The notes under the pieces are model-generated. The model had not been told where the DNA came from. It did no database searches and saw nothing but the letters and a program-made list of their open reading frames with translations. From contig JAZQYO010000007.1 in the NCBI GenBank assembly GCA_045633565.1, forward strand, positions 8,724-72,723: DNA of 64,000 bases, read 5' to 3'. Source of the stretch: Clostridia bacterium. Lineage in GTDB: Bacteria; Bacillota; Clostridia; RUG12999. Shown here one piece after another: positions 2,950-56,425 of the stretch. A program made the position numbers and the translations under genes. Each line of letters starts with the position of its first letter. Within the stretch, counting starts at the first letter, position 1.

Positions 2950-3984
2950 TTAGAACTGTTTTAAAAATCTTACGTCATTTTCAAAGAACAGACGCAAATC
3001 TCTGATGTCAAATCTTCTCATAACAATTCTTTCAAGACCGATACCAAATGCAAAACCGCTGTAAATTTCAGGGTCAATGTTACAGTTTTTCAGAACTTTG
3101 GGGTGAACCATGCCTGCACCTAAAATTTCTATCCAGCCTTCGTTTTTACAAAGTCTGCAGCCTTTTCCGCCACAAGAGAAGCAACGGATGTCCATTTCAG
3201 CCGACGGCTCTGTGAACGGGAAATGATGAGGGCGGAAACGTGTTACTGTTTCTTCGCCATAAAGTTTTTTAGCAAAAAGGTCAAGTGTGCCTTTAAGGTC
3301 CGCCATTGTTACACCTTTATCAACAACAAGTCCCTCAATCTGATGGAAAACGGGGCTGTGTGTTGCGTCAACCGCATCGCTGCGGTAAACACGTCCGGGA
3401 GCAAGAATTCTTATGGGTGGCTGCTGTTTTTCCATTACACGCACCTGCATAGGCGATGTTTGTGTTCTAAGGACGGTGTTTTCGTTTATGTAGAAGGTGT
3501 CCTGAGTATCTCTTGCAGGGTGGTTTTTGGGGATGTTGAGCGCTTCAAAGTTATAGTAATCAAGCTCAATATCCGGACCTTCGGCGATTGAAAAGCCAAG
3601 GCCAATAAAGATGTCCTTGATTTCTTCAAGCACCTGAGCTGTCGGATGAAGTCTGCCTGCAGCATTTTTGTTGCCCGGCATTGTAACGTCAATTTTCTCC
3701 TCTTTAAGCTTCTGTGCGGACATGGCAGATTCCACTTTTTCTTTTGCTGCTTCAAGCTTTGCCTCAATAGATTCCCTTACCTCGTTGGCAATTTTACCAA
3801 CAAGCGGTCTTTCCTCTGCAGAAAGTCCGCCCATACCTCTTAAAACTGCGGTAAGTTCGCCTTTTTTTCCGAGATATTTAATTCTCAAATTTTCAAGTTC
3901 TTCCTTTGCCTTGTCAGGCTGCGTGCTTATGCCGAGGATTTCAGTTTCCGCTGCAACTCTTATTTTTTCCAGCATTTCTTTCAT
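2950..3984 (-). CDS. pheS: phenylalanine--tRNA ligase alpha subunit
   Basis: 344 aa with class II aaRS core motifs (..[17 protein letters not shown].. [16 protein letters not shown]..). pheT follows 14 nt downstream. Confidence 0.95.
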
Positions 3985-4014: not shown

Positions 4015-4263
4015 ATACAAAAAAATTCCTTCCGCCCACATTGGGACGGAAGGACAATTCCTTACGCGGTACCACCCAAATTCCGGATAAAAATCCGGCA
4101 CTTTTTAAAGATATAACGGTCTTTCCCGGCAAACCCTACTGGCCTTTCAGGTTTGCAGCTCCTGAGCGAACTTCATCTGTCGCTTTTCGCAGAACAGCTT
4201 TCAGCCTGTGGCATGTTCCTCTCTTGGCGTGCTGACGCAGATTACTTTTCTCAATCACAGCTT
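4015..4263 (-). promoter_or_regulatory. T-box riboswitch leader (Phe-specific) with promoter and intrinsic terminator, upstream of pheS
   Basis: Minus-strand sequence AATTTGGGTGGTACCGCG (plus 4065-4082) matches the conserved T-box motif. A terminator hairpin TCCTTCCG..CGGAAGGA (4027-4054) is followed by T-run on the minus strand. A UUC triplet sits in the candidate specifier region (..GAAGUUCGCU..). Promoter TTGCAA(4294-4299)-17-TAAAAT(4271-4276) lies on the minus strand. Confidence 0.8.
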
Positions 4264-4302
4264 TTAAAACATTTTATCACATATTTTTGTCATTTGCAAG
4301 TG

Positions 4303-13337: not shown

Positions 13338-14456
13338 TTATTTATACCTTTCAATTACCTTTTCCACCCCATTTGCAATGTATTTCACCGAGGCAAGTGC
13401 CTCCTCAATTGTGTTGCCTCCGGTACCCACTTCTACAATTACTGCTCCGGGGGCAGTATGCCCGTTAAACCGGGAAGTCCTGAGATTTATAGGCCGGGCA
13501 AAATTTTCTTCCTCCTCCAAAAAGCATTTTTGCAAGTGTGCAGCAAATTTAAGGTTTGTCCGCCACCTGTCATGTTTCAGACCAAGCTCGTCAGTGCCTA
13601 CTACAAGCATTACCTGTGCCACCTTTTCACCGTCTATTGTAGTTGTCAGCTTGGTTTTTACTCCCTCTTTATTAATTATCGAGTCCCTGTGCAAATCAAG
13701 CACAATTTTTATCTGCGGATTTTCAGAAAGTGCGGCTTCTACCGCTTTGCATGAGCGTGCATAGGAATTATTATATTCCGGATAATCAAACAGGTCTGTG
13801 ATGTGCTCACACTTTATATCCCTTTTTTCAAGTTCTTTTTTGAGTTCTTTGCCAATCCGTATCATATTATAATCGGTGTCGGTGGTGCGGTCCTCAGCTG
13901 TATGGGGAAAATTATACTTTGACGTGGGTGCATAGCTTTCGGTGGAATGAGAATGGACAATCAACACCTGAGCCCCCTCTTTTTCAAGGCTGAAAGCGGG
14001 CGAAGATGAAATGTCCCCTGCCGATACTTTGTAGGAGGTTTCGTTGTTTATTGTAACTTTTTCGCCTGCGTCCGTTTTCCCACCCCCGGAACTTACAGTT
14101 TTTTCAAGAACATCTGCCGTCTCCTTTTCCTCCGCCAAGGGCATATCCTCTATGTAAGACGGGTTTTCGCCGTCATAATAAAAGTTCCCCGAAATTGTCC
14201 CGGCAACGGTGTCGGCATTGGTAAAGTCCCCGCCAAAAATCATGTCGCAAAGCTTCCCGGCATAGCTGACAAACCCCTCCGTTTTGTAGATATATTCACC
14301 TTTTTGGGCATCTGCCGCAAGTACATAATTTGATTTAAGCCTAGGGCGGATAAATGTCGCAAGCGTGTCTGCACAAAAACATACCATAAGCGCCAGAAAC
14401 AGCGCTCCCACCCCTTTTATACAAAACTTTCTAAGGCTCTGCCTTGCTTTTGACAC
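13338..14456 (-). CDS. spoIIP: stage II sporulation protein P (SpoIIP-family peptidoglycan hydrolase)
   Basis: Core motifs VLIVHSHSTESYAP.., ..YARSCKAVEAAL.., IVLDLHRDS match the SpoIIP family, with an N-terminal signal-anchor. Start placed at GTG 14454-14456 (VSKARQ..), preceded by RBS GGGGGTGAG. The ORF-track ATG at 14531 has no RBS. Confidence 0.75.
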   Translation of the reverse strand: MSKARQSLRKFCIKGVGALFLALMVCFCADTLATFIRPRLKSNYVLAADAQKGEYIYKTEGFVSYAGKLCDMIFGGDFTNADTVAGTISGNFYYDGENPSYIEDMPLAEEKETADVLEKTVSSGGGKTDAGEKVTINNETSYKVSAGDISSSPAFSLEKEGAQVLIVHSHSTESYAPTSKYNFPHTAEDRTTDTDYNMIRIGKELKKELEKRDIKCEHITDLFDYPEYNNSYARSCKAVEAALSENPQIKIVLDLHRDSIINKEGVKTKLTTTIDGEKVAQVMLVVGTDELGLKHDRWRTNLKFAAHLQKCFLEEEENFARPINLRTSRFNGHTAPGAVIVEVGTGGNTIEEALASVKYIANGVEKVIERYK

Positions 14457-14516
14457 TTTCTCACCCCCTTTTCTTATAATATATATGCGGGAAGCGGACA
14501 AAATATCAAAAAAAGC

Positions 14517-14545
14517 TTGACTTTGCGCCAAAACTGTTATATAAT
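14517..14545 (+). promoter_or_regulatory. sigma-A type promoter of rpsF-ssb-rpsR (TTGACT-17-TATAAT)
   Basis: Near-consensus -35 and -10 boxes with 17-nt spacer, about 65 nt upstream of the rpsF start. Confidence 0.65.
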
Positions 14546-18158: not shown

Positions 18159-19352
18159 TTATTTCTCCTTTTTAAGAGGTTTTGTGCTTCTTTCTAAAAT
18201 TCCGTTAAGATACGCAATGAGCGTGCCGTAATTTGTAACGGGAACGCCTGCGTCCTGAGCCGCAGAAATCCGGCTTTTCACTTCCGTTTCGGGCAGAGTG
18301 CATCCTCCGCAATGCACGACAAGTTTGTATTTATCAAAGTTTTTCGGGAAATCTCCGCCTGAGGCAAAGTCAAACTCAATTTTCTTGCCCGTTTTTTCCA
18401 TAATCCAGCGAGGAATTTTAACCGTTCCGATGTCCTCACATTGGCGGTGATGCGTGCAGCCTTCGGCAATTAAAATTTTATCTCCGTCTAAGAGATTCTC
18501 CACCGCCTTTGCTGCGTCCGCCATTTTCCAAAGCTGCCCTTTATACCTTGAAAAGAGTATGGAAAATGAGGTCAAAGGCACATCTTCGGGAACTATTTTT
18601 GCGACTTTTTTAAAGACTTGAGAATCTGTTATAACAAGGTCGGGTTTGCCGACTTTTTCTAAGGTTTCAGCAAGCTCGGTATCCTGCACGCAAAGGGCAT
18701 TTGCACCGCTTTCTAAAATGTCACGGATGGTCTGCTGCTGAGGCAGGATAAGTCTGCCTTTGGGTGCGGACTCATCTATCGGGATTACTAAAACTACCAA
18801 ATCGCCCTCTTTTATGAGGTCGCCAACAAGGCGTTTGTCCGGCTCTTTTTTTGCAAAAGTGCCGAGGAGATTTTTTAAGTCTTCTATATTCTCCCCCGTT
18901 TTTGCACTGACGCAAATATCATGCGGATATTCTGCCTTTACCGGCTCAGCCTCATCAAGCTTGTTTCTTACTACCACAAAGGGGAGTTTTTTCTTTTCTA
19001 TTTCTTTTATAATCTCTTTTTCCGGCTCGCCTACACCATTTTTTATATCGGTGCAAACTATGGCAATGTCCGTTTTGTTTAAAGCTCCGTAGGTTTTTTC
19101 AACCCTCATTTTTCCAAGCTCGCCCTCATCATCAAGCCCGGCGGTGTCAATAAGCGTCACCGGACCTAAGGGAAGCAGCTCCATATTTTTATAAACTGGG
19201 TCTGTCGTTGTACCGGCAAAGTCTGACACAATAGCAAGGTTTTGACCGGTAATCGCATTAATAAGACTTGATTTCCCCGAATTTCGTCTGCCGAAAATGC
19301 CAATGTGAATTCTCTCGGCAGCCGGTGTAGTGTTAAGACTCATAATTATCAC
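18159..19352 (-). CDS. hydF: [FeFe]-hydrogenase H-cluster maturation GTPase HydF
   Basis: N-terminal GTPase (GRRNSGKSSLINA, DTAG, NKLD) plus a C-terminal domain with the CxH...HC..C cluster-binding region (CTHHRQC..HCGGC). Adjacent to hydG and hydE. Confidence 0.85.
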   Translation of the reverse strand: MIIMSLNTTPAAERIHIGIFGRRNSGKSSLINAITGQNLAIVSDFAGTTTDPVYKNMELLPLGPVTLIDTAGLDDEGELGKMRVEKTYGALNKTDIAIVCTDIKNGVGEPEKEIIKEIEKKKLPFVVVRNKLDEAEPVKAEYPHDICVSAKTGENIEDLKNLLGTFAKKEPDKRLVGDLIKEGDLVVLVIPIDESAPKGRLILPQQQTIRDILESGANALCVQDTELAETLEKVGKPDLVITDSQVFKKVAKIVPEDVPLTSFSILFSRYKGQLWKMADAAKAVENLLDGDKILIAEGCTHHRQCEDIGTVKIPRWIMEKTGKKIEFDFASGGDFPKNFDKYKLVVHCGGCTLPETEVKSRISAAQDAGVPVTNYGTLIAYLNGILERSTKPLKKEK

Positions 19353-20771
19353 CTAAAATCTGAAATCACGGACATTTTCTTCAATGAGTTTCAGCCTTTC
19401 GGTTGCAATTTCCCTCACTTTTTCGTTGGGTATATTGGAAAGCTCTTTCATTATAAGCTCATTACCGATTTTCTTGGTGTCCTCAGACGCATAATCCATC
19501 AGAAATTCTTTTAGCGTCATAAGTGCATTGGGGTGACAGCAGTTTTGAATCTGTCCTGTTTTGCAAAGCTGCATAAACCTGTCCCCCGTTCTGCCTTCAC
19601 GGTAACATGCCGTGCAGAAGGACGGGATATATCCCAGCCTCATCAGCCAGTTTACAACCTCGTCAAGCGTTCTTTTGTCGCTGACGTCAAACTGCTCGGA
19701 GTTTTCCTCTTCCGGCTCGGGCTCACAGTAACCGCCCACGCTTGTGCGTGACGCACCGCTTATCTGGGAAACTCCAAGGCGGATAACCTTTTCACGCACT
19801 TCCTTGCTTTCTCTTGTGGAAATAATCATGCCTGTATAGGGCACCGCAAGACGGATAAGTGCGCAAAGTTTTGCAAAAATCTCATCTGAAATTCCGTTAT
19901 CAAAAGTGGTCGGGTCAATATCGTCCGCCCTTTTGATTCTCGGAACGCTGATTGTGTGCGGACCTACACCATGAACCGCCTCAAGATGTTCGGCGTGCAT
20001 AAGTAGTCCCGCAAATTCGTATTTATAAAGCTCAAGTCCAAACAGAACACCAAGACCTACATCATCAATGCCGCCCTCCATGGCTCTGTCCATGGCTTCG
20101 GTATGATAGGCATAGTTGTGTTTTGGGCCTGTCGGATGAAGTTTTTCGTAGCTTTCTTTGTGATAGGTTTCCTGGAACAGGATATATGTGCCTATTTCCG
20201 CCTCTTTAAGCTTTCGGTAGTTTTCCACCGTAGTGGCTGCTATATTCACATTTACCCTGCGGATAGCACCGTTTTTGTGTTTTACATTGTAAATGGTTTT
20301 GATGCAGTCAAGGATATATTCTATCGGATTGTTGACCGGGTCCTCCCCTGCTTCGATTGCAAGGCGTTTGTGACCCATATCCTGCAGAGCAATTACTTCT
20401 TTTTCCACTTCCTCGAGCGAAAGTTTTTTTCTGCAGATGTGCTTGTTCTGATGGTGATATGGGCAGTAAACACAACCGTTTACGCAGTAGTTGGAAAGAT
20501 AAAGCGGCGCAAACATAACAATTCTGTTGCCGTAAAAGTCTTTTTTGAGCTGCTCGGCAAGTGTGTAAATCCGATTTATTCTTTCCTCATCCTCGCAGGC
20601 TAAAAGCACCGATGCTTCCCTGTGACTGAGCCCTTTTCTCTCAGCCGCTTTGTCAATTATTTTATCTATAAGTTCAAAATTATTTTTATTTTTTTCTGCA
20701 TAATCAAGCGTATCAAGAATTTCCTCGTGGTTTATAAATTCTTCCGCTTTAAGTGATTTTGGGTTATACAT
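19353..20771 (-). CDS. hydG: [FeFe]-hydrogenase maturase HydG (radical SAM, ThiH-like)
   Basis: CVNGCVYC radical-SAM CX3CX2C motif and a C-terminal auxiliary cluster motif (CTACYREGRTGDRFMQLC). 472 aa. Confidence 0.85.
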   Translation of the reverse strand: MYNPKSLKAEEFINHEEILDTLDYAEKNKNNFELIDKIIDKAAERKGLSHREASVLLACEDEERINRIYTLAEQLKKDFYGNRIVMFAPLYLSNYCVNGCVYCPYHHQNKHICRKKLSLEEVEKEVIALQDMGHKRLAIEAGEDPVNNPIEYILDCIKTIYNVKHKNGAIRRVNVNIAATTVENYRKLKEAEIGTYILFQETYHKESYEKLHPTGPKHNYAYHTEAMDRAMEGGIDDVGLGVLFGLELYKYEFAGLLMHAEHLEAVHGVGPHTISVPRIKRADDIDPTTFDNGISDEIFAKLCALIRLAVPYTGMIISTRESKEVREKVIRLGVSQISGASRTSVGGYCEPEPEEENSEQFDVSDKRTLDEVVNWLMRLGYIPSFCTACYREGRTGDRFMQLCKTGQIQNCCHPNALMTLKEFLMDYASEDTKKIGNELIMKELSNIPNEKVREIATERLKLIEENVRDFRF

Positions 20772-20825
20772 ATTTTTCTCCTTTCTTTCGGGTCAGAGCC
20801 TCTTCCCCGTCAGATAAAAACTTTA

Positions 20826-21859
20826 TTACTTTTCGTTATAGTCCCCTCTGTCGCACACTATTTCGTAACCGATTTTTAAAATTTGCTCTTTTAATCTTTC
20901 AAGCTGAAATGCATTTTCAGTTCCTGTGTGCAGCTTGTTGTTATAGAGGGTATATTTTTCTCTCGCCTCTTTGGGTGAAAGGTTTGGCATAATAACATTT
21001 GCCCCGGCAAGGATGCCTTTTTCCCTGCCATTTTCCGATGCAGTTCCAAGCGCGGTTGTTGCAGGCAGCAGCACCGACGGCAGCATCAGGCGGATTATTG
21101 CCAGAAGATAAACTGTCAGCTCGGCTGAGCCTTTTTTTTCTTCCCCAAAAGGCGTGTCTTTATGCGGCAAAAACGGGCCAATCCCCACCATCTGGGGTTC
21201 AAATTCCTTAATAAACCGCAGGTCGGAAACTATATTTTCCACCGTCTGTCCCGGCGAACCCACCATAAATCCGCAACCTGTCTGAAAACCTATTTTTTTT
21301 AAGGTTTTCAGACATCTCATGCGGTTCTGGTATGACATTCCGGTCGGGTGAAGGCTTCTGTAATGAGCCTCGCACGCCGTTTCGTGTCTGAGCAGATATC
21401 TGTCCGCACCGGCGGCCCTGAGCTTTTTATAGCTTTCGTCACTTTTCTCCCCCAGCGACAGGGTAACCGCACAATCGGGGTGTTTTGACTTAATGGTTTT
21501 TATCAGATTAACCAGCCGGTCATCTGAAAACTTTACGTCCTCTCCCCCCTGCATTACAAAGGTGCGAAAACCAAGATGGTATCCGTTTTCGCAGGCAGAC
21601 AGAATTTCCTCGTCTGTCAGCCGGTATCGCTCTGCTGCCTTGTTGCTTTTTCTGATTCCACAGTAATAGCAATCATTTTTGCAGTAGTTGGACACCTCGA
21701 TAAGTCCGCGGATAAACACCTTGTTGCCGTAATTCTCCTTTGCACGAATCCGCGCTTTCTCATAGAGATATTCCGGCTCTGGCATTTGAGAAATTAGAGT
21801 TTTCAGCTCATCATCCGATAAATTTCTTTCGTTAAACAGTTTATCAATCAGTTTTTTCA

Positions 21860-21860
<1 letters not shown>
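20826..21860 (-). CDS. hydE: [FeFe]-hydrogenase maturase HydE (radical SAM, BioB-like)
   Basis: CKNDCYYCGIR CX3CX2C motif. 344 aa. Sits in the hydE-hydG-hydF arrangement. Confidence 0.85.
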
Positions 21861-29734: not shown

Positions 29735-30829
29735 CTAACCCTCTTTTACAATTCCTTTTTCAACTTTAAAAAGTTTAGGCCGGAGCTCCTCCGGAACAAT
29801 TGTTTTTTCAGTTCCGGTAATTATCACCTGTTTATCACACAGTTGTTGCATTAAATATTTTCTTCTTTTTATATCAAATTCGCTTGTTATATCGTCAAGC
29901 AGCAAAACCGGATACTCTCCTGTCTGCTGATAAAACAGCTCTGCCTGCACCATTTTAAGTGCAAGAACTATACTTTTCTGTTGTCCCTGTGAACCGTAGA
30001 TTTTTGCATTTTTTCCGTTGATATAAAAGAGCAAATCATCCCGGTGAGGACCTACAAGACAAGTCTTTTCCCTGATTTCTTTTTCTTTATTTATTGTTAA
30101 AGCCCTTAAAAACTCTTGCCTTATATATTCTTTGTCGCCCGATTCATCAAACTGAACCGTTTTTATATATTTAAGCTTAATTTCTTCTTTTCCTTCGCTT
30201 ATTTCTTCAAAAACCGGCTTTATAATTTCCTTGATTTTATTAACAAGCGAAATTCTAAACCACATTATAGTGCTTCCGTATTCAGCAAGTTTTTCATTCC
30301 ACACATCAAGGGTTTTTTCTGCCCCTTCCTCTTTTAAAAGCTTATTTTTTTGAAGGAGCGTTCTGTTATAATCTGTAAGTGCAGACAGGTATTTTTTTCT
30401 TAGTTGACCTGCACAAAGGTCCATATATCTTCTGCGGTAAAAAGGACTGTCTTTTACAGTGTCCATATCCTGAGGGGAAAATAAAACAACATTTAAATTA
30501 CCTATAAAATCAATTCTTCTTTTAAAGGCAACACCGCTTACTTCAATTTTTTTTCCTTTTTCTTTTTCAAAAGTAATTTTATTTTCTTTTTTTCTTCCGC
30601 CTGATTCATATTTCACCGAAATTTCTGCTCTTTGTTTGCCGAAATTTATAAACCCCATGTCCGGAGAAAATTTAAAACTTTTTGCCATACTGCAAAAATA
30701 TATTCCTTCAATAAGGTTAGTTTTTCCCTGGGCATTATCTCCGTAAATCAAATTAATTTCGGGAGAAAGACTTAACTTTAAATTTTCATAATTTCTGAAA
30801 TTTTTAAACTCTATTTCGGTTATAAACAT
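29735..30829 (-). CDS. recF: DNA replication and repair protein RecF
   Basis: Walker A GDNAQGKTNLIEG and ABC signature-like region. Conserved dnaN-yaaA-recF-gyrB order. Confidence 0.95.
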   Translation of the reverse strand: MFITEIEFKNFRNYENLKLSLSPEINLIYGDNAQGKTNLIEGIYFCSMAKSFKFSPDMGFINFGKQRAEISVKYESGGRKKENKITFEKEKGKKIEVSGVAFKRRIDFIGNLNVVLFSPQDMDTVKDSPFYRRRYMDLCAGQLRKKYLSALTDYNRTLLQKNKLLKEEGAEKTLDVWNEKLAEYGSTIMWFRISLVNKIKEIIKPVFEEISEGKEEIKLKYIKTVQFDESGDKEYIRQEFLRALTINKEKEIREKTCLVGPHRDDLLFYINGKNAKIYGSQGQQKSIVLALKMVQAELFYQQTGEYPVLLLDDITSEFDIKRRKYLMQQLCDKQVIITGTEKTIVPEELRPKLFKVEKGIVKEG

Positions 30830-30831
30830 GT

Positions 30832-31035
30832 TTAAATTACCTTACAGATTTCATTTTCAAAAGATACTTCATCGCCGGGATAAATCTTTTTACCTCTCAT
30901 TAAAACTGTTTCACCATTAACTTTTACAAGTCCATCTAAAATTACTTCTTTTGCCTCACCACCGGTTGAGCAAAGACCTGAAAATTTTAAAAGTTGGTCA
31001 AGTTTTATAAAAGGTGTTGTAATTTTTATTTCCAT
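30832..31035 (-). CDS. yaaA: S4-domain RNA-binding protein YaaA
   Basis: 67 aa S4-like protein (..GEAKEVILDGLVKVNGE..) in the conserved position between dnaN and recF. Confidence 0.8.
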   Translation of the reverse strand: MEIKITTPFIKLDQLLKFSGLCSTGGEAKEVILDGLVKVNGETVLMRGKKIYPGDEVSFENEICKVI

Positions 31036-31036
31036 T

Positions 31037-32137
31037 TTATCTTATCCTTACAGGTAAAACTATGTAGAGATATTCTTCACCTTCTACCGGACGAAGAACT
31101 GTCGGAGTGATATTTCCGTTAAGTTCTATCATTACATATTCATCATCAATTGCTTTTAAGGCATCAAGCATAAATTTGCAGTTATAACCAACCTCAAAAG
31201 TTTCATTTCCGTTGCCGCTGACAGCAATAACTTCTTTAAGATGTCCTTTTGCAGTATCACAGGTTATGGTTATGCTATTTAAATCATAAGCAATTTTAAC
31301 AGGGTTTATAATTCCGCCTGCTTCAGCAAGAAGTGAAGCTCTGTCTATACTTTTTACAAGTTCTTTAACCTCAACCCTTGCACTGTAAAGCTTTTCCTTG
31401 GGAATTACATTGTTATAATTTATAAACTCTCCTTCTAAAAGTCTTGAGAAAAATCTGCAGCTGCCAAACTGGAACAAAACATTTTTCTCTGCCAGACTTA
31501 TCGAAACTTTTTCATCTTCAGTGCTCATTATTTTAGAAAGCTCATTTAAAGCTCTACCCTGAACAGTAAAGCTTAAATCATGGAAAACTTCAATAGGAGT
31601 GTTCTTTATTGCAAGACGATATCCGTCAACAGCAATGCCCTTCATATTATTTGAATTTATTTCCAGTTTAATTCCTGTTAAAATAGGATTAATGTCAGAT
31701 TGTGCAACCGCAAAAGATGTTTTTCTGATTACAGAAAGTAAACTTTCTGCAGTTGTAATTATTTCCTGGTTATATGACATATCTGGAATTTTCGGGAACT
31801 CATCACCATTTATACCCATAATATTAAAATCAAGCTCTCCGCATTTGATATTAACATTTTTGTCGCTCATAACCTCAAAGTCAATCATTCCTTCAGGCAT
31901 ACGACGTATAATTTCCGAAAGCATTCTTGCATCAACTGCAATACTTCCTTCAGAATAAACATTGGCATCAAACACATATTCAATTGTAATTTCATTATTA
32001 CTGCCTGTTATTTTTATATCTTTACCTGCTTCAATCAAAAGTGTTTCAAGAATAGGAAAAGATGAATTTGAAGCTGCAGCTTTGCCTGCCGCATTAATTG
32101 CAGTCATCATATCAAAATTAGAACAGGAAAATTTCAT
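31037..32137 (-). CDS. dnaN: DNA polymerase III beta subunit (sliding clamp)
   Basis: 366 aa with three-domain clamp architecture, immediately downstream of dnaA. Confidence 0.95.
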   Translation of the reverse strand: MKFSCSNFDMMTAINAAGKAAASNSSFPILETLLIEAGKDIKITGSNNEITIEYVFDANVYSEGSIAVDARMLSEIIRRMPEGMIDFEVMSDKNVNIKCGELDFNIMGINGDEFPKIPDMSYNQEIITTAESLLSVIRKTSFAVAQSDINPILTGIKLEINSNNMKGIAVDGYRLAIKNTPIEVFHDLSFTVQGRALNELSKIMSTEDEKVSISLAEKNVLFQFGSCRFFSRLLEGEFINYNNVIPKEKLYSARVEVKELVKSIDRASLLAEAGGIINPVKIAYDLNSITITCDTAKGHLKEVIAVSGNGNETFEVGYNCKFMLDALKAIDDEYVMIELNGNITPTVLRPVEGEEYLYIVLPVRIR

Positions 32138-37995: not shown

Positions 37996-38011
37996 GTGTA
38001 TGAAAATTTAA

Positions 38012-38150
38012 TCGGGGTGCTGATTTTCGGCTGAGAAAGCGATTGCTTAACCCGCGAACCTGATACGGATAATGCCGGCGTAGGAATAATAATCGATTAT
38101 TTTGCTCTACTGGGATTTCCCGGTGGAGCTTTTTTAATCCATCAGGAATT
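38012..38150 (+). promoter_or_regulatory. TPP (thiamine pyrophosphate) riboswitch
   Basis: GGGGTGC..GGCTGAGA..AACCC..GAACCTGATACGGATAATGCCGGCGTAGGAA matches the THI-element consensus (CTGAGA, ACCTGATCTGGATAATGCCAGCGTAGGGAA). The downstream gene is thiT. Coordinates are approximate (+/-2). Confidence 0.85.
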
Positions 38151-41834: not shown

Positions 41835-41919
41835 TGGTGGAGAGAGATGGATTCGAACCATCGAAGGCGGTGCCAACAGATTTACAGTCTGCCCCCTTTG
41901 GCCACTCGGGAACCTCTCC
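41835..41919 (-). tRNA. tRNA-Tyr (anticodon GTA), 85 nt with long variable arm, CCA encoded
   Basis: Reverse complement GGAGAGGTTCCCGAGTGGCCAAAGGGGGCAGACTGTAAATCTGTTGGCACCGCCTTCGATGGTTCGAATCCATCTCTCTCCACCA gives a cloverleaf with 7-bp acceptor, CUGUAAA anticodon loop, GATGG-TTCGAAT-CCATC T-arm and 13-nt variable arm. Confidence 0.9.
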
Positions 41920-41925
41920 AAAAAA

Positions 41926-42001
41926 TGGAGCTGGTGATGGGACTCGAACCCGCGACCTGCTGATTACAAATCAGCTGCTCTACCAATTGAGCTACACCAG
42001 C
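41926..42001 (-). tRNA. tRNA-Thr (anticodon TGT), 76 nt, CCA encoded
   Basis: Reverse complement GCTGGTGTAGCTCAATTGGTAGAGCAGCTGATTTGTAATCAGCAGGTCGCGGGTTCGAGTCCCATCACCAGCTCCA. Acceptor, D and anticodon stems pair. The T-stem has one C-A mismatch. It lies 6 nt upstream of tRNA-Tyr on the same strand. Confidence 0.85.
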
Positions 42002-53600: not shown

Positions 53601-53675
53601 GCCCCCTTAGTTAAATGGATATAACAAGCCCCTCCTAAGGGCTAGTTACAGGTTCGATTCCTGTAGGGGGTGCCA
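53601..53675 (+). tRNA. tRNA-Arg (anticodon CCT), 75 nt, CCA encoded
   Basis: GCCCCCTTAGTTAAATGGATATAACAAGCCCCTCCTAAGGGCTAGTTACAGGTTCGATTCCTGTAGGGGGTGCCA. Acceptor 7 bp (one G-U), D-arm GTTA/TAAC, anticodon stem AGCCC/GGGCT with loop CUCCUAA, T-arm ACAGG-TTCGATT-CCTGT. Terminator hairpin at 53678-53709. Confidence 0.85.
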
Positions 53676-53818: not shown

Positions 53819-55132
53819 ATGTCAAGCTATAAAGTTAAAAAAACAGACGGGGATCTCAGCTGGTTTACTCAGGACAGATTCGGAATGTTCATTCATTTCG
53901 GGCTTTATTCCATGCTTTCAAGGCACGAATGGGTAAGGTCAAACGAATCAATTCCCGATGAAGTTTATGACAATCACATAAATTTTTTCAATCCCGATTT
54001 ATTTGATGCGAAAGAGTGGGCAAAAAAGGCGAAAGATGCCGGCATGAAGTATGCGGTTATGACAGCAAAACACCATGAGGGTTTTTGCATGTTTGATTCT
54101 GCATACACCGAATATAAATCAACAAACACACCTGCGAAAAAGGACTTTATAAAAGAATATGTTGAGGCGTTTCGTGAGGCAGGACTTAAGGTGGGCATTT
54201 ACTATTCCCTTTTAGACTGGCATCACCCCGAATATCAGATTGACTTTTTCCATCCGAGAAGAGCAGATAAAAACGCCGAAGAAATGAACAAAAAGCGTGA
54301 TATGGCAAAATACCGTGAATATATGTTTAATCAGGTATGCGAGCTTTTAACAAACTACGGGAAAATTGACATAATCTGGTTTGACTTTACATACCCCGAC
54401 CTTGACAGCATCAGAAATGAATATAACCAGAGATTTATGCCCGATTACAGGGAATGGATGCCCTGGGCAACAAAGGAAACCTGGGATGCGGAAAATCTTA
54501 TTAAAATGATAAGAGAAATAAATCCGGATATTATTATAAACAACAGAACAGGAATTCCGCAGGATATCACAACTCCCGAGCAGACACTCACAACCGAGTG
54601 GCCCAAATACCCCGGCACAGATGAAAATGCGGCGTGGGAATCCTGCCAGACCTTCTCGGGCTCGTGGGGATACTTCCGTGACGAAATGAGCTGGAAAACT
54701 CCCGAGCAGCTTATAAGAATGCTCATCAGCTGCGTACAGGGCGGTGGAAATCTTATAATGAACGTAGGACCTACCTCAAGAGGATATTTTGACAAAAGAG
54801 CGGACAAAGCACTGGGCGTGTTTGCCGACTGGATGAAATATAACCAGCGGTCAATTTACGGCTGCACAAAAGCTGAGCCGGAATTTGAAGCGCCGGTGGG
54901 AACTGCCCTGACGCAGTCTGAAGATGGAAAACGTCTTTACATACACCTTATCGACTATCCGTTTGCCGAAATGAAAATGAAAAATATGGCAGGCAAAATC
55001 GCCTACACCCAGTTTTTGCACGACGGCTCGGAGCTTAAAATCCGCGAAAACAAAGACGGCAGCGTAAACTTTATCATTCCGGGAATAAAACCCGACCAGA
55101 CAATTTCTGTCGTGGAAGTATTTTTAAAATAA
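53819..55132 (+). CDS. alpha-L-fucosidase (GH29)
   Basis: FGMFIHFGLYS.., ..TAKHHEGFCMFDS.., ..YYSLLDWHHPEY motifs of the GH29 family. 437 aa. Confidence 0.9.
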   Translation: MSSYKVKKTDGDLSWFTQDRFGMFIHFGLYSMLSRHEWVRSNESIPDEVYDNHINFFNPDLFDAKEWAKKAKDAGMKYAVMTAKHHEGFCMFDSAYTEYKSTNTPAKKDFIKEYVEAFREAGLKVGIYYSLLDWHHPEYQIDFFHPRRADKNAEEMNKKRDMAKYREYMFNQVCELLTNYGKIDIIWFDFTYPDLDSIRNEYNQRFMPDYREWMPWATKETWDAENLIKMIREINPDIIINNRTGIPQDITTPEQTLTTEWPKYPGTDENAAWESCQTFSGSWGYFRDEMSWKTPEQLIRMLISCVQGGGNLIMNVGPTSRGYFDKRADKALGVFADWMKYNQRSIYGCTKAEPEFEAPVGTALTQSEDGKRLYIHLIDYPFAEMKMKNMAGKIAYTQFLHDGSELKIRENKDGSVNFIIPGIKPDQTISVVEVFLK

Positions 55133-55151
55133 TGCAAAGAGCAGAATTAAT

Positions 55152-55180
55152 AAAAAAACCCGACCATAGGTCGGGTTTTA
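55152..55180. terminator. bidirectional terminator (AACCCGACC-atag-GTCGGGTT)
   Basis: Flanked by A7 and T4ATT. Ends the fucosidase gene on plus and the 40-aa ORF on minus. Confidence 0.7.
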
Positions 55181-55181
55181 T

Positions 55182-55304
55182 TCATTTTTCTGAGTCTGAA
55201 GATATGTAAATTTCCTCAACCTTTTTCTGTGCATCCTGAAGAATTTTTGTTGCATCTGTTATTGCATTAAACAGAATATAATACATTTCCTGATACTTGT
55301 CCAT
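55182..55304 (-). CDS. candidate 40-aa small protein (MDKYQEMYYILFNAITDATKILQDAQKKVEEIYISSDSEK)
   Basis: Not in the ORF track (under 60 aa). ATG has a strong RBS AAGGAGAAAAATT-ATG. It sits downstream of a promoter, leader and terminator structure and ends at the bidirectional terminator. Predicted helical peptide. Confidence 0.3.
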   Translation of the reverse strand: MDKYQEMYYILFNAITDATKILQDAQKKVEEIYISSDSEK

Positions 55305-55335
55305 AATTTTTCTCCTTTGTTTTGATTAGGAGCAT

Positions 55336-55584
55336 AAAAAAGCGCCGGCAGGAGCCGACGCATAAAACACAAGGCTCCCTAATTTACTGCGACATAAATT
55401 GCGAAGATGATTTCTACCGGTATGGGAAACCCAAAACGCCTCAGGAGCCTGCGTTTTTAGCAGACAACAGACGTTTTGGTTTTAAAAATGGACATAAACG
55501 TCCCCCGATACCTCTTGGTAGAAAAAGAAATATCTTCAATTTATGTCGCAAGATTATTATATCATCATATTCTACATTTTGCAA
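55336..55584 (-). promoter_or_regulatory. promoter (TTGCAA-17-TATAAT) plus ~210-nt structured leader with long-range P1 helix and an intrinsic terminator; candidate riboswitch/attenuator or sRNA
   Basis: On the minus strand, -35 sits at 55579-55584 and -10 at 55556-55561. P1 pairs CTTGCGACATAAATTGAAGAT (plus 55532-55552) with ATCTTCGCAATTTATGTCGCAG (plus 55387-55408). Inner stems include TTCTACC..GGTAGAA, GGAC-GTTTAT-GTCC and AAACCAAAACG..CGTTTTGGTTT. Terminator GCGTCGGC-TCCTG-CCGGCGC plus T6 lies at 55336-55361, about 30 nt before the small ORF. Confidence 0.45.
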
Positions 55585-55663
55585 CAATTTTTTGTCGACA
55601 AATTATGACAAAGGAAACGGAAGCTATAATATTCAAAAAACCATATTTTACCTCAGACTTCTC

Positions 55664-56425
55664 TTATTTTTTGGAGCGGTACTGATTTGGCGTAACTCCA
55701 AGTGAAGCAATAAAGTTTCTGTTAAAGCTGCGCAGGGATTTGTACCCGCTTTCAAGAGCGCAGTGAATGATTGGATAATCTGTGTTATTTAAAAGATAGC
55801 AGGCATTGCTTATTCTATACTGATTAATGTAAGAATTAAAGGAAATACCTGTTGATTTTTTGAAACAGCGGGACAGATGAGAATAACTGTACCCGGTATC
55901 GCTTGAAAGTTTGGCAAGAGAGCAATCTTTTGCAAAATTTTGTTCAACAAAATCAAATATTTTATGTAGCAGATTGTCAGAAAGCTTATTTTTGTCTATA
56001 TATTTTACATCTTTTTCAAATTGTGAACACAAAAAGTACAACACACCCTTTTTTTCGGTTACAGAAGAATCGGGCAAAAGATTGTCCAGTGCACCAATTA
56101 AAAATGCATCGGTAGATATTGTGTTTTTTTCGGGAATTTTATTTCTGATTTTGGAATAATAAGCGCTGACCAGCTCGGGTGAAAATATGCAGAGCATGTG
56201 CGTACTGTTGCTACTCTGCAAAGAATGCAGCTGATTGGGAAAAACAAGCACAGATTCGCCCTGTTTCAGCGGATATAGGGCATTATCAATCTCAACCGTC
56301 ATCTCTCCGGAAAGGACGGTTATAATCTCAAATGAATTGTGCAGGTGAACAGGAAAACTGAAGTTTTCACCATATTCCTTGCGGAAATATTCTGCCGTGC
56401 CGAAGTGATTGTACTGATAAAACAT
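55664..56425 (-). CDS. AraC-family transcriptional regulator with N-terminal cupin sensor domain (likely xylose/fucose-utilisation regulator)
   Basis: Cupin-like N-terminus (..FPVHLHNSFEII..) and a C-terminal double HTH_18 (..SLAKLSSDTGYSYSHLSRCFKK.., ..ESGYKSLRSFNRNF..). Divergent from xylB. Confidence 0.85.
   Translation of the reverse strand: MFYQYNHFGTAEYFRKEYGENFSFPVHLHNSFEIITVLSGEMTVEIDNALYPLKQGESVLVFPNQLHSLQSSNSTHMLCIFSPELVSAYYSKIRNKIPEKNTISTDAFLIGALDNLLPDSSVTEKKGVLYFLCSQFEKDVKYIDKNKLSDNLLHKIFDFVEQNFAKDCSLAKLSSDTGYSYSHLSRCFKKSTGISFNSYINQYRISNACYLLNNTDYPIIHCALESGYKSLRSFNRNFIASLGVTPNQYRSKK

Follow-up and report, generated by a model that had tools for sequence, protein, structure and literature searches.

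A structured leader RNA with tip-to-tail pairing precedes an unannotated small-protein gene in Clostridia: a candidate transcription attenuator

How does a gene come to be expressed when it lies behind an intrinsic terminator and no promoter-like site separates the two? The question is posed by a short unit on the minus strand of a 64,000-nucleotide stretch of DNA from a Clostridia bacterium (contig JAZQYO010000007.1; the whole stretch is referred to here as the window, and coordinates given without a locus name are positions in it). Read along the minus strand, the unit comprises a promoter, a structured stretch, a GC-rich terminator with a run of six U (U6), a ribosome binding site (RBS), a 40-codon ORF and a bidirectional terminator. 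It is flanked by the gene for an AraC-family regulator (56425-55664) and by a convergent alpha-L-fucosidase gene (53819-55132). A preliminary description of this DNA had taken the leader for a candidate riboswitch/attenuator or sRNA. We have analysed the locus together with a comparison set of 14 distinct variants, plus strain copies, of the same promoter-hairpin-terminator-ORF unit. Of the original assignment, the attenuator and the sRNA still stand as readings; the ligand riboswitch with a switchable P1 does not.

The unit and the gene behind the terminator

The promoter is of the sigma-70 type (TTGCAA-17-TATAAT; 55556..55584 (-)), with the -35 hexamer at 55584-55579 and the -10 hexamer, preceded by TG (TGATATAAT), at 55561-55556. 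Already proposed in the preliminary description, it was recovered by our promoter scan; it is near-invariant in the homologous loci and precedes the ORF in all 14 distinct variants. The promoter motif has no second copy in the window, and a scan of viral contigs returned none. The terminator that follows the structured stretch, T2 (GCGUCGGC-UCCU-GCCGGCGC and then U6; 55336..55361 (-), stem 55361-55342), was located by the terminator scan and is present in all variants; folded alone, the window copy reaches -16.6 kcal/mol. The RBS (AAGGAG; 55312..55317 (-), 7 nt 5' of the ATG), read from the sequence, is kept in homologous loci, and the ORF at 55182..55304 (-) was taken from the ORF list and supported by homologue searches. 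The unit closes with a terminator at 55155..55179 (-), which the scan located on both strands and which is common to the unit and the convergent alpha-L-fucosidase gene. For all of these elements our coordinates agree with those given earlier. The same is true of the earlier contention that expression of the ORF relies on read-through: the promoter scan found no promoter-like site between T2 and the ATG. A 37-codon ORF with a TTG start (55259-55372 (-)) runs in another frame across the terminator and into the beginning of the 40-aa gene; it is probably spurious, and nothing suggests that it is conserved as a leader peptide.

Conservation of the unit begins abruptly at two tandem boxes, TGTCrnn-ATT-TGTCGAy, located ~10 nt upstream of the -35 hexamer (TGTCATA-ATT-TGTCGAC in the window; 55594..55610 (-)). 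The boxes, a putative regulator site, mark the left edge of the conserved unit: they are kept in all aligned loci, while the sequence farther upstream is not conserved. A single TGTCN6TGWCGAY motif is present in the window, where 0.04 would be expected. The similarity of the boxes to the Spo0A core TGTCGAA extends to the contacted positions G2, C4 and G5 (PMC3485338), and on this likeness we treat them as a candidate Spo0A-type site (0A box), which is a lead only. A SpoIIP gene is encoded in the window (13338-14531 (-)), and the organism therefore has sporulation genes. Elsewhere the window carries genes for HydF and radical-SAM hydrogenase maturases (18159-21860 (-)) as well as recF and dnaN (29735-32137 (-)); given the presence of the latter two, it probably spans the replication-origin region.

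The 40-codon ORF has 21 relatives of 36-46 aa in a sequence search and 604 clusters in a profile search. Across 13 loci its pN/pS is 0.17 at a pS of 0.64, and the differences between close strains are synonymous. Judged by this substitution pattern, the ORF is a real gene under purifying selection. AlphaFold2 models the product as a single alpha-helix (pLDDT 91.5), and the protein is accordingly predicted to be a single acidic amphipathic alpha-helix; being acidic, it is not an obvious RNA binder. It has no match in Pfam, NCBIfam or PHROG, and its sequence matches in the PDB are exclusively idealised or de novo helical designs. The protein clusters of the family are given without source names.

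The ORF occurs once in the window. In the 14 distinct variants it always follows the promoter-hairpin-terminator unit, so that promoter, leader and gene are conserved as one whole, and its neighbours differ from locus to locus (PFOR, ThrRS, metK, the pyr operon and others), from which we conclude that the unit is a self-contained, dispersed gene. On one metagenomic contig of 185 kb there are at least two copies, one at 40-46 kb and another at 77-84 kb. A scan of viral contigs found no member of the ORF family. Distant homologues, in Desulfitobacterium and in an Oscillospiraceae MAG, are preceded by a divergent gene for an XRE-type regulator and have no such hairpin. Two such homologues of 47 and 66 aa were found beside a divergent XRE-type HTH gene at positions 3001-3141 of locus L003 and 2992-3192 of locus L004; the translations at L004, inspected by eye, also include a DNA cytosine methyltransferase-like ORF and a HicB-like ORF.

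A long, fast-evolving hairpin

No Rfam 15 family matches 55145-55600 at its gathering score, and when 55100-55700 was scanned permissively (E<=10) the matches were sub-threshold, terminator-driven noise only; neither scan returned a T-box at the leader. The leaders of 12 homologous loci are likewise without an Rfam match, in line with the earlier remark that the leader could not be matched to consensus sequences such as those of TPP, SAM or the T-box, and we found no description of such a motif in the literature. The leader belongs to a new family of leader RNAs, candidate attenuators, that is tied to an unannotated small-protein family. We considered and rejected 6S RNA, SRP RNA, a retron ncRNA and a T-box: there is no Rfam match, no central bubble and no nearby reverse transcriptase, and the unit is multi-copy. 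Rfam matches elsewhere in the window (a T-box leader, a TPP riboswitch and three tRNA genes; 4039-4267 (-), 38003-38104 (+), 41838-42001 (-) and 53601-53672 (+)) are unrelated to the leader.

The 223-nt leader of the window has a minimum free energy (MFE) of -87.8 kcal/mol (z = -7.5), and none of 200 shuffled sequences folds equally well. The structure is a single long irregular hairpin of 165 nt (55387..55551 (-)) that starts ~4 nt past the -10 box and has ~52 bp on its main path, along with a three-way junction bearing a small GGAC/GUCC side hairpin (55503-55490 (-), placed by the MFE fold). The first ~20 nt (55551-55532 (-)) pair with the last ~22 nt (55408-55387 (-)) in a closing stem, P1, just as the preliminary description had it. 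The three internal helices listed there, UUCUACC/GGUAGAA, GGAC-GUUUAU-GUCC and AAACCAAAACG/CGUUUUGGGUUU, are all part of the MFE structure, apart from one G that had been dropped from the last of them.

Conservation of the structure in relatives, which had been named as a point to examine, was found. In all 14 distinct homologous leaders the fold is a single long hairpin with the terminator behind it, and the leaders fall into two length classes: long forms of 150-179 nt with the three-way junction, the window among them, and short forms of 104-116 nt. The closing stem has 12-19 uninterrupted base pairs in every variant. In an alignment of its bottom 14 pairs (alignment A5) 98.7% of cells are paired, and both sides have changed in 10 of the 14 pairs (36 cells); none of 500 shuffles matched the observed value, and slid controls gave 34-43%. 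Despite covariation at ten positions, these bottom 14 bp retain a loose UGCnAnAnAAA pattern, so that the term 'hypervariable' applies mainly to the middle of the hairpin.

The inverted repeats raise the question of whether the palindrome is selected as DNA. On that reading the segment would be an invertible switch or a MITE-like mobile palindrome, and the formal resemblance is considerable: in the C. difficile cwpV switch, inverted repeats lie between promoter and ORF and a terminator depends on the sequence that they enclose (PMC2784873), and here too repeats of 20 bp surround a segment of ~125 bp between promoter and gene, with a terminator dependent on the sequence inside. The hairpin has moreover been replaced between near-identical strains. 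However, in 14/14 variants the sense strand folds more stably, with a mean advantage of 10 kcal/mol over the reverse complement, and G·U pairs make up 77 of the 716 base pairs in the 14 variants, compared with 4 A·C mismatches. This bias points to selection on the RNA and not on a DNA palindrome. Unlike cwpV, the locus shows no sign of inversion. The segment at the hairpin tip described below has the same orientation in all 14 variants and in five strain copies, and in about 25 loci overall, the palindromy runs through the whole segment and is not confined to its ends, no second copy of a hairpin arm exists in the window, and the promoter and terminator belong to the conserved unit. We consider a DNA-level element largely refuted and hardly credible.

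The body of the hairpin evolves fast. Two contigs that carry the same locus have flanks that are 95-100% identical and ORFs that are 100% identical, and their hairpins cannot be aligned except at the tip. A strain that is 99.0% identical to the window over 3.1 kb differs from it at 31 positions, 9 of which fall within the 165-nt hairpin and include a compensatory change from G-C to A-U; these differences cluster in one inner helix (55422-55506 (-)). Strongly conserved sequence inside the hairpin is essentially confined to a single apical segment, seg1 (AAAAACGCAGGCUCC; 55444..55458 (-)), which is kept in all variants.

This pattern bears directly on whether the leader is a riboswitch. A layout of promoter, structure, terminator and gene, with alternative pairings, is compatible with a metabolite- or ion-binding riboswitch in which the hairpin serves as the aptamer, and a sensor of general compaction, for instance of Mg2+, would need no conserved pocket. 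We nevertheless regard a riboswitch as very improbable, and a small metabolite as an unlikely trigger. The freely varying body, whose length (104-179 nt), branching (the three-way junction is present or absent) and sequence differ even between strains with near-identical flanks, speaks against a small-molecule aptamer, and no conserved pocket-like core was found across the variants. The closing stem is far longer than a switchable P1, and its 20 bp in the window do not compete with the terminator; in this respect the 'riboswitch-like P1' of the preliminary description has to be given up. Finally, the downstream gene always encodes the same uncharacterised protein of 36-40 aa and never a metabolic enzyme or a transporter. 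A fast-evolving body fits a scaffold selected for pairing and not for a ligand pocket.

Pairing between hairpin tip and tail

Seg1, at the tip of the hairpin, is complementary to a segment of the tail, seg2 (GGGAGCCUUGUGUUUU; 55364..55379 (-)), which begins 8 nt past the hairpin in the window and 1-8 nt past its foot across variants. This pairing between apical loop and tail, like the two upstream boxes and the multi-copy nature of the family, was absent from the preliminary description. The duplex has an energy of -15.5 to -22.0 kcal/mol in the 14 variants, with the window at the stable end (-22.0), and in every variant it beats 300 of 300 shuffled tails. Cognate pairs are more stable (mean -20.1 kcal/mol) than non-cognate ones (-16.3 kcal/mol). 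For covariation we used alignment A3, in which seg1 and the tail are joined by an artificial spacer; it replaced a MAFFT alignment (A2) that misregistered the window sequence. In A3 94.8% of cells are paired and both sides have changed in 7 of 14 pairs, against none of 500 shuffles that matched the observed value and slid controls of 29-54%. Wobble pairs are present in the alignment and A·C mismatches are absent. A conserved run of five A (A5) opens seg1 and a conserved run of four to five U (U4-5) closes seg2. It is this helix, and not P1, that appears to stand against an antiterminator: the earlier idea of mutually exclusive helices holds in so far as an attenuator layout exists, with seg1:seg2 as the competitor in place of P1.

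T2 starts 2-3 nt past the U run of seg2. If the sequence is folded without the 3' half of T2 (seg4), the predicted partner of seg2 in 14/14 variants is the 5' half of T2 together with its loop, at -10 to -20 kcal/mol (-13.3 in the window). The strength of this alternative helix varies. In the window (-13 to -14 kcal/mol) it was equalled by one of 300 shuffles; it beats at least 98% of shuffles in six variants, the window included, and ~97% in a seventh, and in about half of the variants (L001, L008, L021, L019, L002 and L011) it does not exceed chance. Its cognate mean is -12.7 kcal/mol against -10.4 for non-cognate combinations, and it is usually weaker than T2. Taken together, the layout appears to be a chain of a 1:2 anti-antiterminator, a 2:3 antiterminator and a 3:4 terminator, of which the 2:3 helix is moderately supported; its use in the cell is something that we infer.

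From these pairings the following course of events may be envisaged. A strong sigma-A promoter, with the two conserved boxes upstream of it, would start transcription almost at the foot of the 165-nt hairpin, and the folded hairpin would present seg1 at its tip. By pairing with seg2 just after the hairpin, seg1 would remove seg2 from play, the GC-rich T2 would form and transcription would stop, leaving an RNA of ~215 nt with a 5'-terminal hairpin. If seg1 were instead withheld, whether in a local apical hairpin, by a bound protein or RNA, or for want of fold-back, seg2 would be free to pair with the 5' half of T2 and so block it, and the polymerase would continue into the promoterless 40-codon gene. 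The nucleotides immediately 5' of seg1 also fold with it into a weak local hairpin at the apex, which would offer a natural means of withholding seg1.

We put the chance that the unit is the leader of a small-protein gene acting as a transcription attenuator at about even. What speaks for it is the gene itself: a conserved ORF with a strong RBS and without a promoter of its own must be expressed by read-through, and dependence of a conserved gene on read-through favours a conditional attenuator whose outcome would be set by whether seg1 is available. The main competing reading, unlikely in our estimate, is a stand-alone stable sRNA, for example a protein sponge or a trans regulator, in which seg1:seg2 would be a structural pseudoknot or a split first terminator and the gene would be served by constitutive leakage. 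It stays viable because the default product is probably the terminated RNA of ~215 nt. The A5 run of seg1 and the U4-5 run of seg2 resemble a terminator with a large loop directly before T2, that is, tandem terminators; the hairpin begins within ~4 nt of the predicted 5' end, and stabiliser hairpins in Firmicutes sit similarly close to the 5' ends of their RNAs; and support for the antiterminator is moderate only. Yet leakage accounts poorly for a strongly conserved ORF that has a strong RBS and, in the window, no promoter of its own, since read-through is more likely to be conditional where a gene under selection has been placed downstream of two efficient terminators. As to a trans regulator, complements of seg1 within the window do not exceed the chance level. 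The attenuator remains our preferred reading.

Geometry is the weak point of pairing in cis. The main path of the hairpin is 38-60 bp long across variants, with seg1 at the tip and seg2 at the foot, and a cis pseudoknot consequently requires the hairpin to fold back on itself. We examined the lengths of the arms that flank the junction; they are unbalanced across variants, and fold-back gains no support from them. The steric problem would vanish if the seg1 loop of a terminated RNA kissed seg2 on nascent transcripts of the same or a paralogous unit, forcing T2 in the manner of an antisense RNA and giving a feedback within the family. Such kissing is favoured by the exposure of seg1 on the tip of a very stable hairpin and by the multi-copy nature of the unit family, and two paralogues on the same contig (L008 and L021) cross-pair at -18.6 and -21.4 kcal/mol, compared with -20.9 and -21.6 for their cognate pairs. 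Against such trans control, the seg2 present on each terminated RNA itself would be a competing partner for seg1, and the cognate pairs are on average the more stable, as expected for co-evolution within a locus. We hold control in trans to be improbable; in the preferred model seg1 and seg2 would pair in cis.

Relation to known systems and meaning for the family

The proposed attenuator shares single features with several known systems. As in trp- and pyr-type attenuators and T-box leaders, an intrinsic terminator lies between promoter and gene, one segment is predicted to have two alternative partners, the terminator's 5' half and a stretch upstream, and the upstream pairing covaries. Unlike in those systems, there is no leader peptide, T-box match or known protein-binding repeat. 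A conserved leader ORF preceded by a Shine-Dalgarno sequence was looked for and not found, and attenuation by a leader peptide was rejected on that ground. A further departure from classical attenuators is the position of the anti-antiterminator, which sits in the apical loop of a long, freely covarying hairpin and not directly adjacent to its partner.

In ZTP/pfl, fluoride and preQ1 riboswitches a pseudoknot between a loop and the 3' tail sets the terminator, and the aptamers are short, with conserved cores and defined ligands. The pairing of a hairpin loop with the 3' tail beside the expression platform is common to these riboswitches and to the leader described here; the leader body, in contrast, is 104-179 nt long and variable, and has neither a conserved pocket nor an Rfam class. 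In the replication genes of pT181 and pIP501 an antisense RNA from the opposite plasmid strand attenuates transcription. There, as proposed here, a segment of the leader is bound by the loop of a stable hairpin, and the choice between the terminator and a rival helix falls to the terminator, but in our case both partners lie on one strand of chromosomal, multi-copy units, and the promoter scan found no antisense promoter covering the hairpin. B. subtilis SR1, which encodes SR1P, is a dual-function sRNA with its ORF inside the sRNA, upstream of the terminator. It resembles our unit in that one short stretch yields a structured RNA and a protein of ~40 aa; here, however, the ORF lies behind the terminator, and the sequences are dissimilar.

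Several loci of the family carry additional palindromes. At L002 an element of ~290 nt (~2651-2935; arms GCGGCGGTTAATCTTAGGGAT and ATCCCTAAGACTAACCGCCG) is inserted exactly between seg2 and T2, and its excision restores the canonical GCGUUUUAUGUGCGC junction. GC-rich palindromes ending in ...CCCTACA(A), for example GTAGGG...CCCTACAA, were seen by eye to recur between T2 and the RBS at L006 (about 2600-2665), L008, L019, L017 and L018, and are absent at the window locus. By their appearance they may form a REP-like family of repeats in these genomes.

What does this unit mean for the organisms that carry it? The broadest picture would be a regulon of very small helical proteins, scattered in many copies over the genomes of spore-forming gut Clostridia and driven throughout from one promoter type, in which tandem Spo0A-like boxes, a new kind of kissing or fold-back attenuator and cross-acting leader RNAs together would make up a family-wide switch for entry into sporulation; as a whole we consider it improbable. 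More immediately, the analysis adds a well-supported structured RNA family that is missing from Rfam 15 and links it to a large unannotated family of small proteins, with hundreds of clusters and several copies to a genome, in Clostridia of the rumen and gut that are uncultured. What makes the architecture unusual is that a long 5'-terminal hairpin varies freely while only its tip is conserved, and that the tip pairs beside the terminator. The conserved upstream boxes provide a handle on the regulator of the family, possibly Spo0A. If the mechanism proposed here is true, it would show by what means an entire group of small genes can be controlled once RNA polymerase has initiated.
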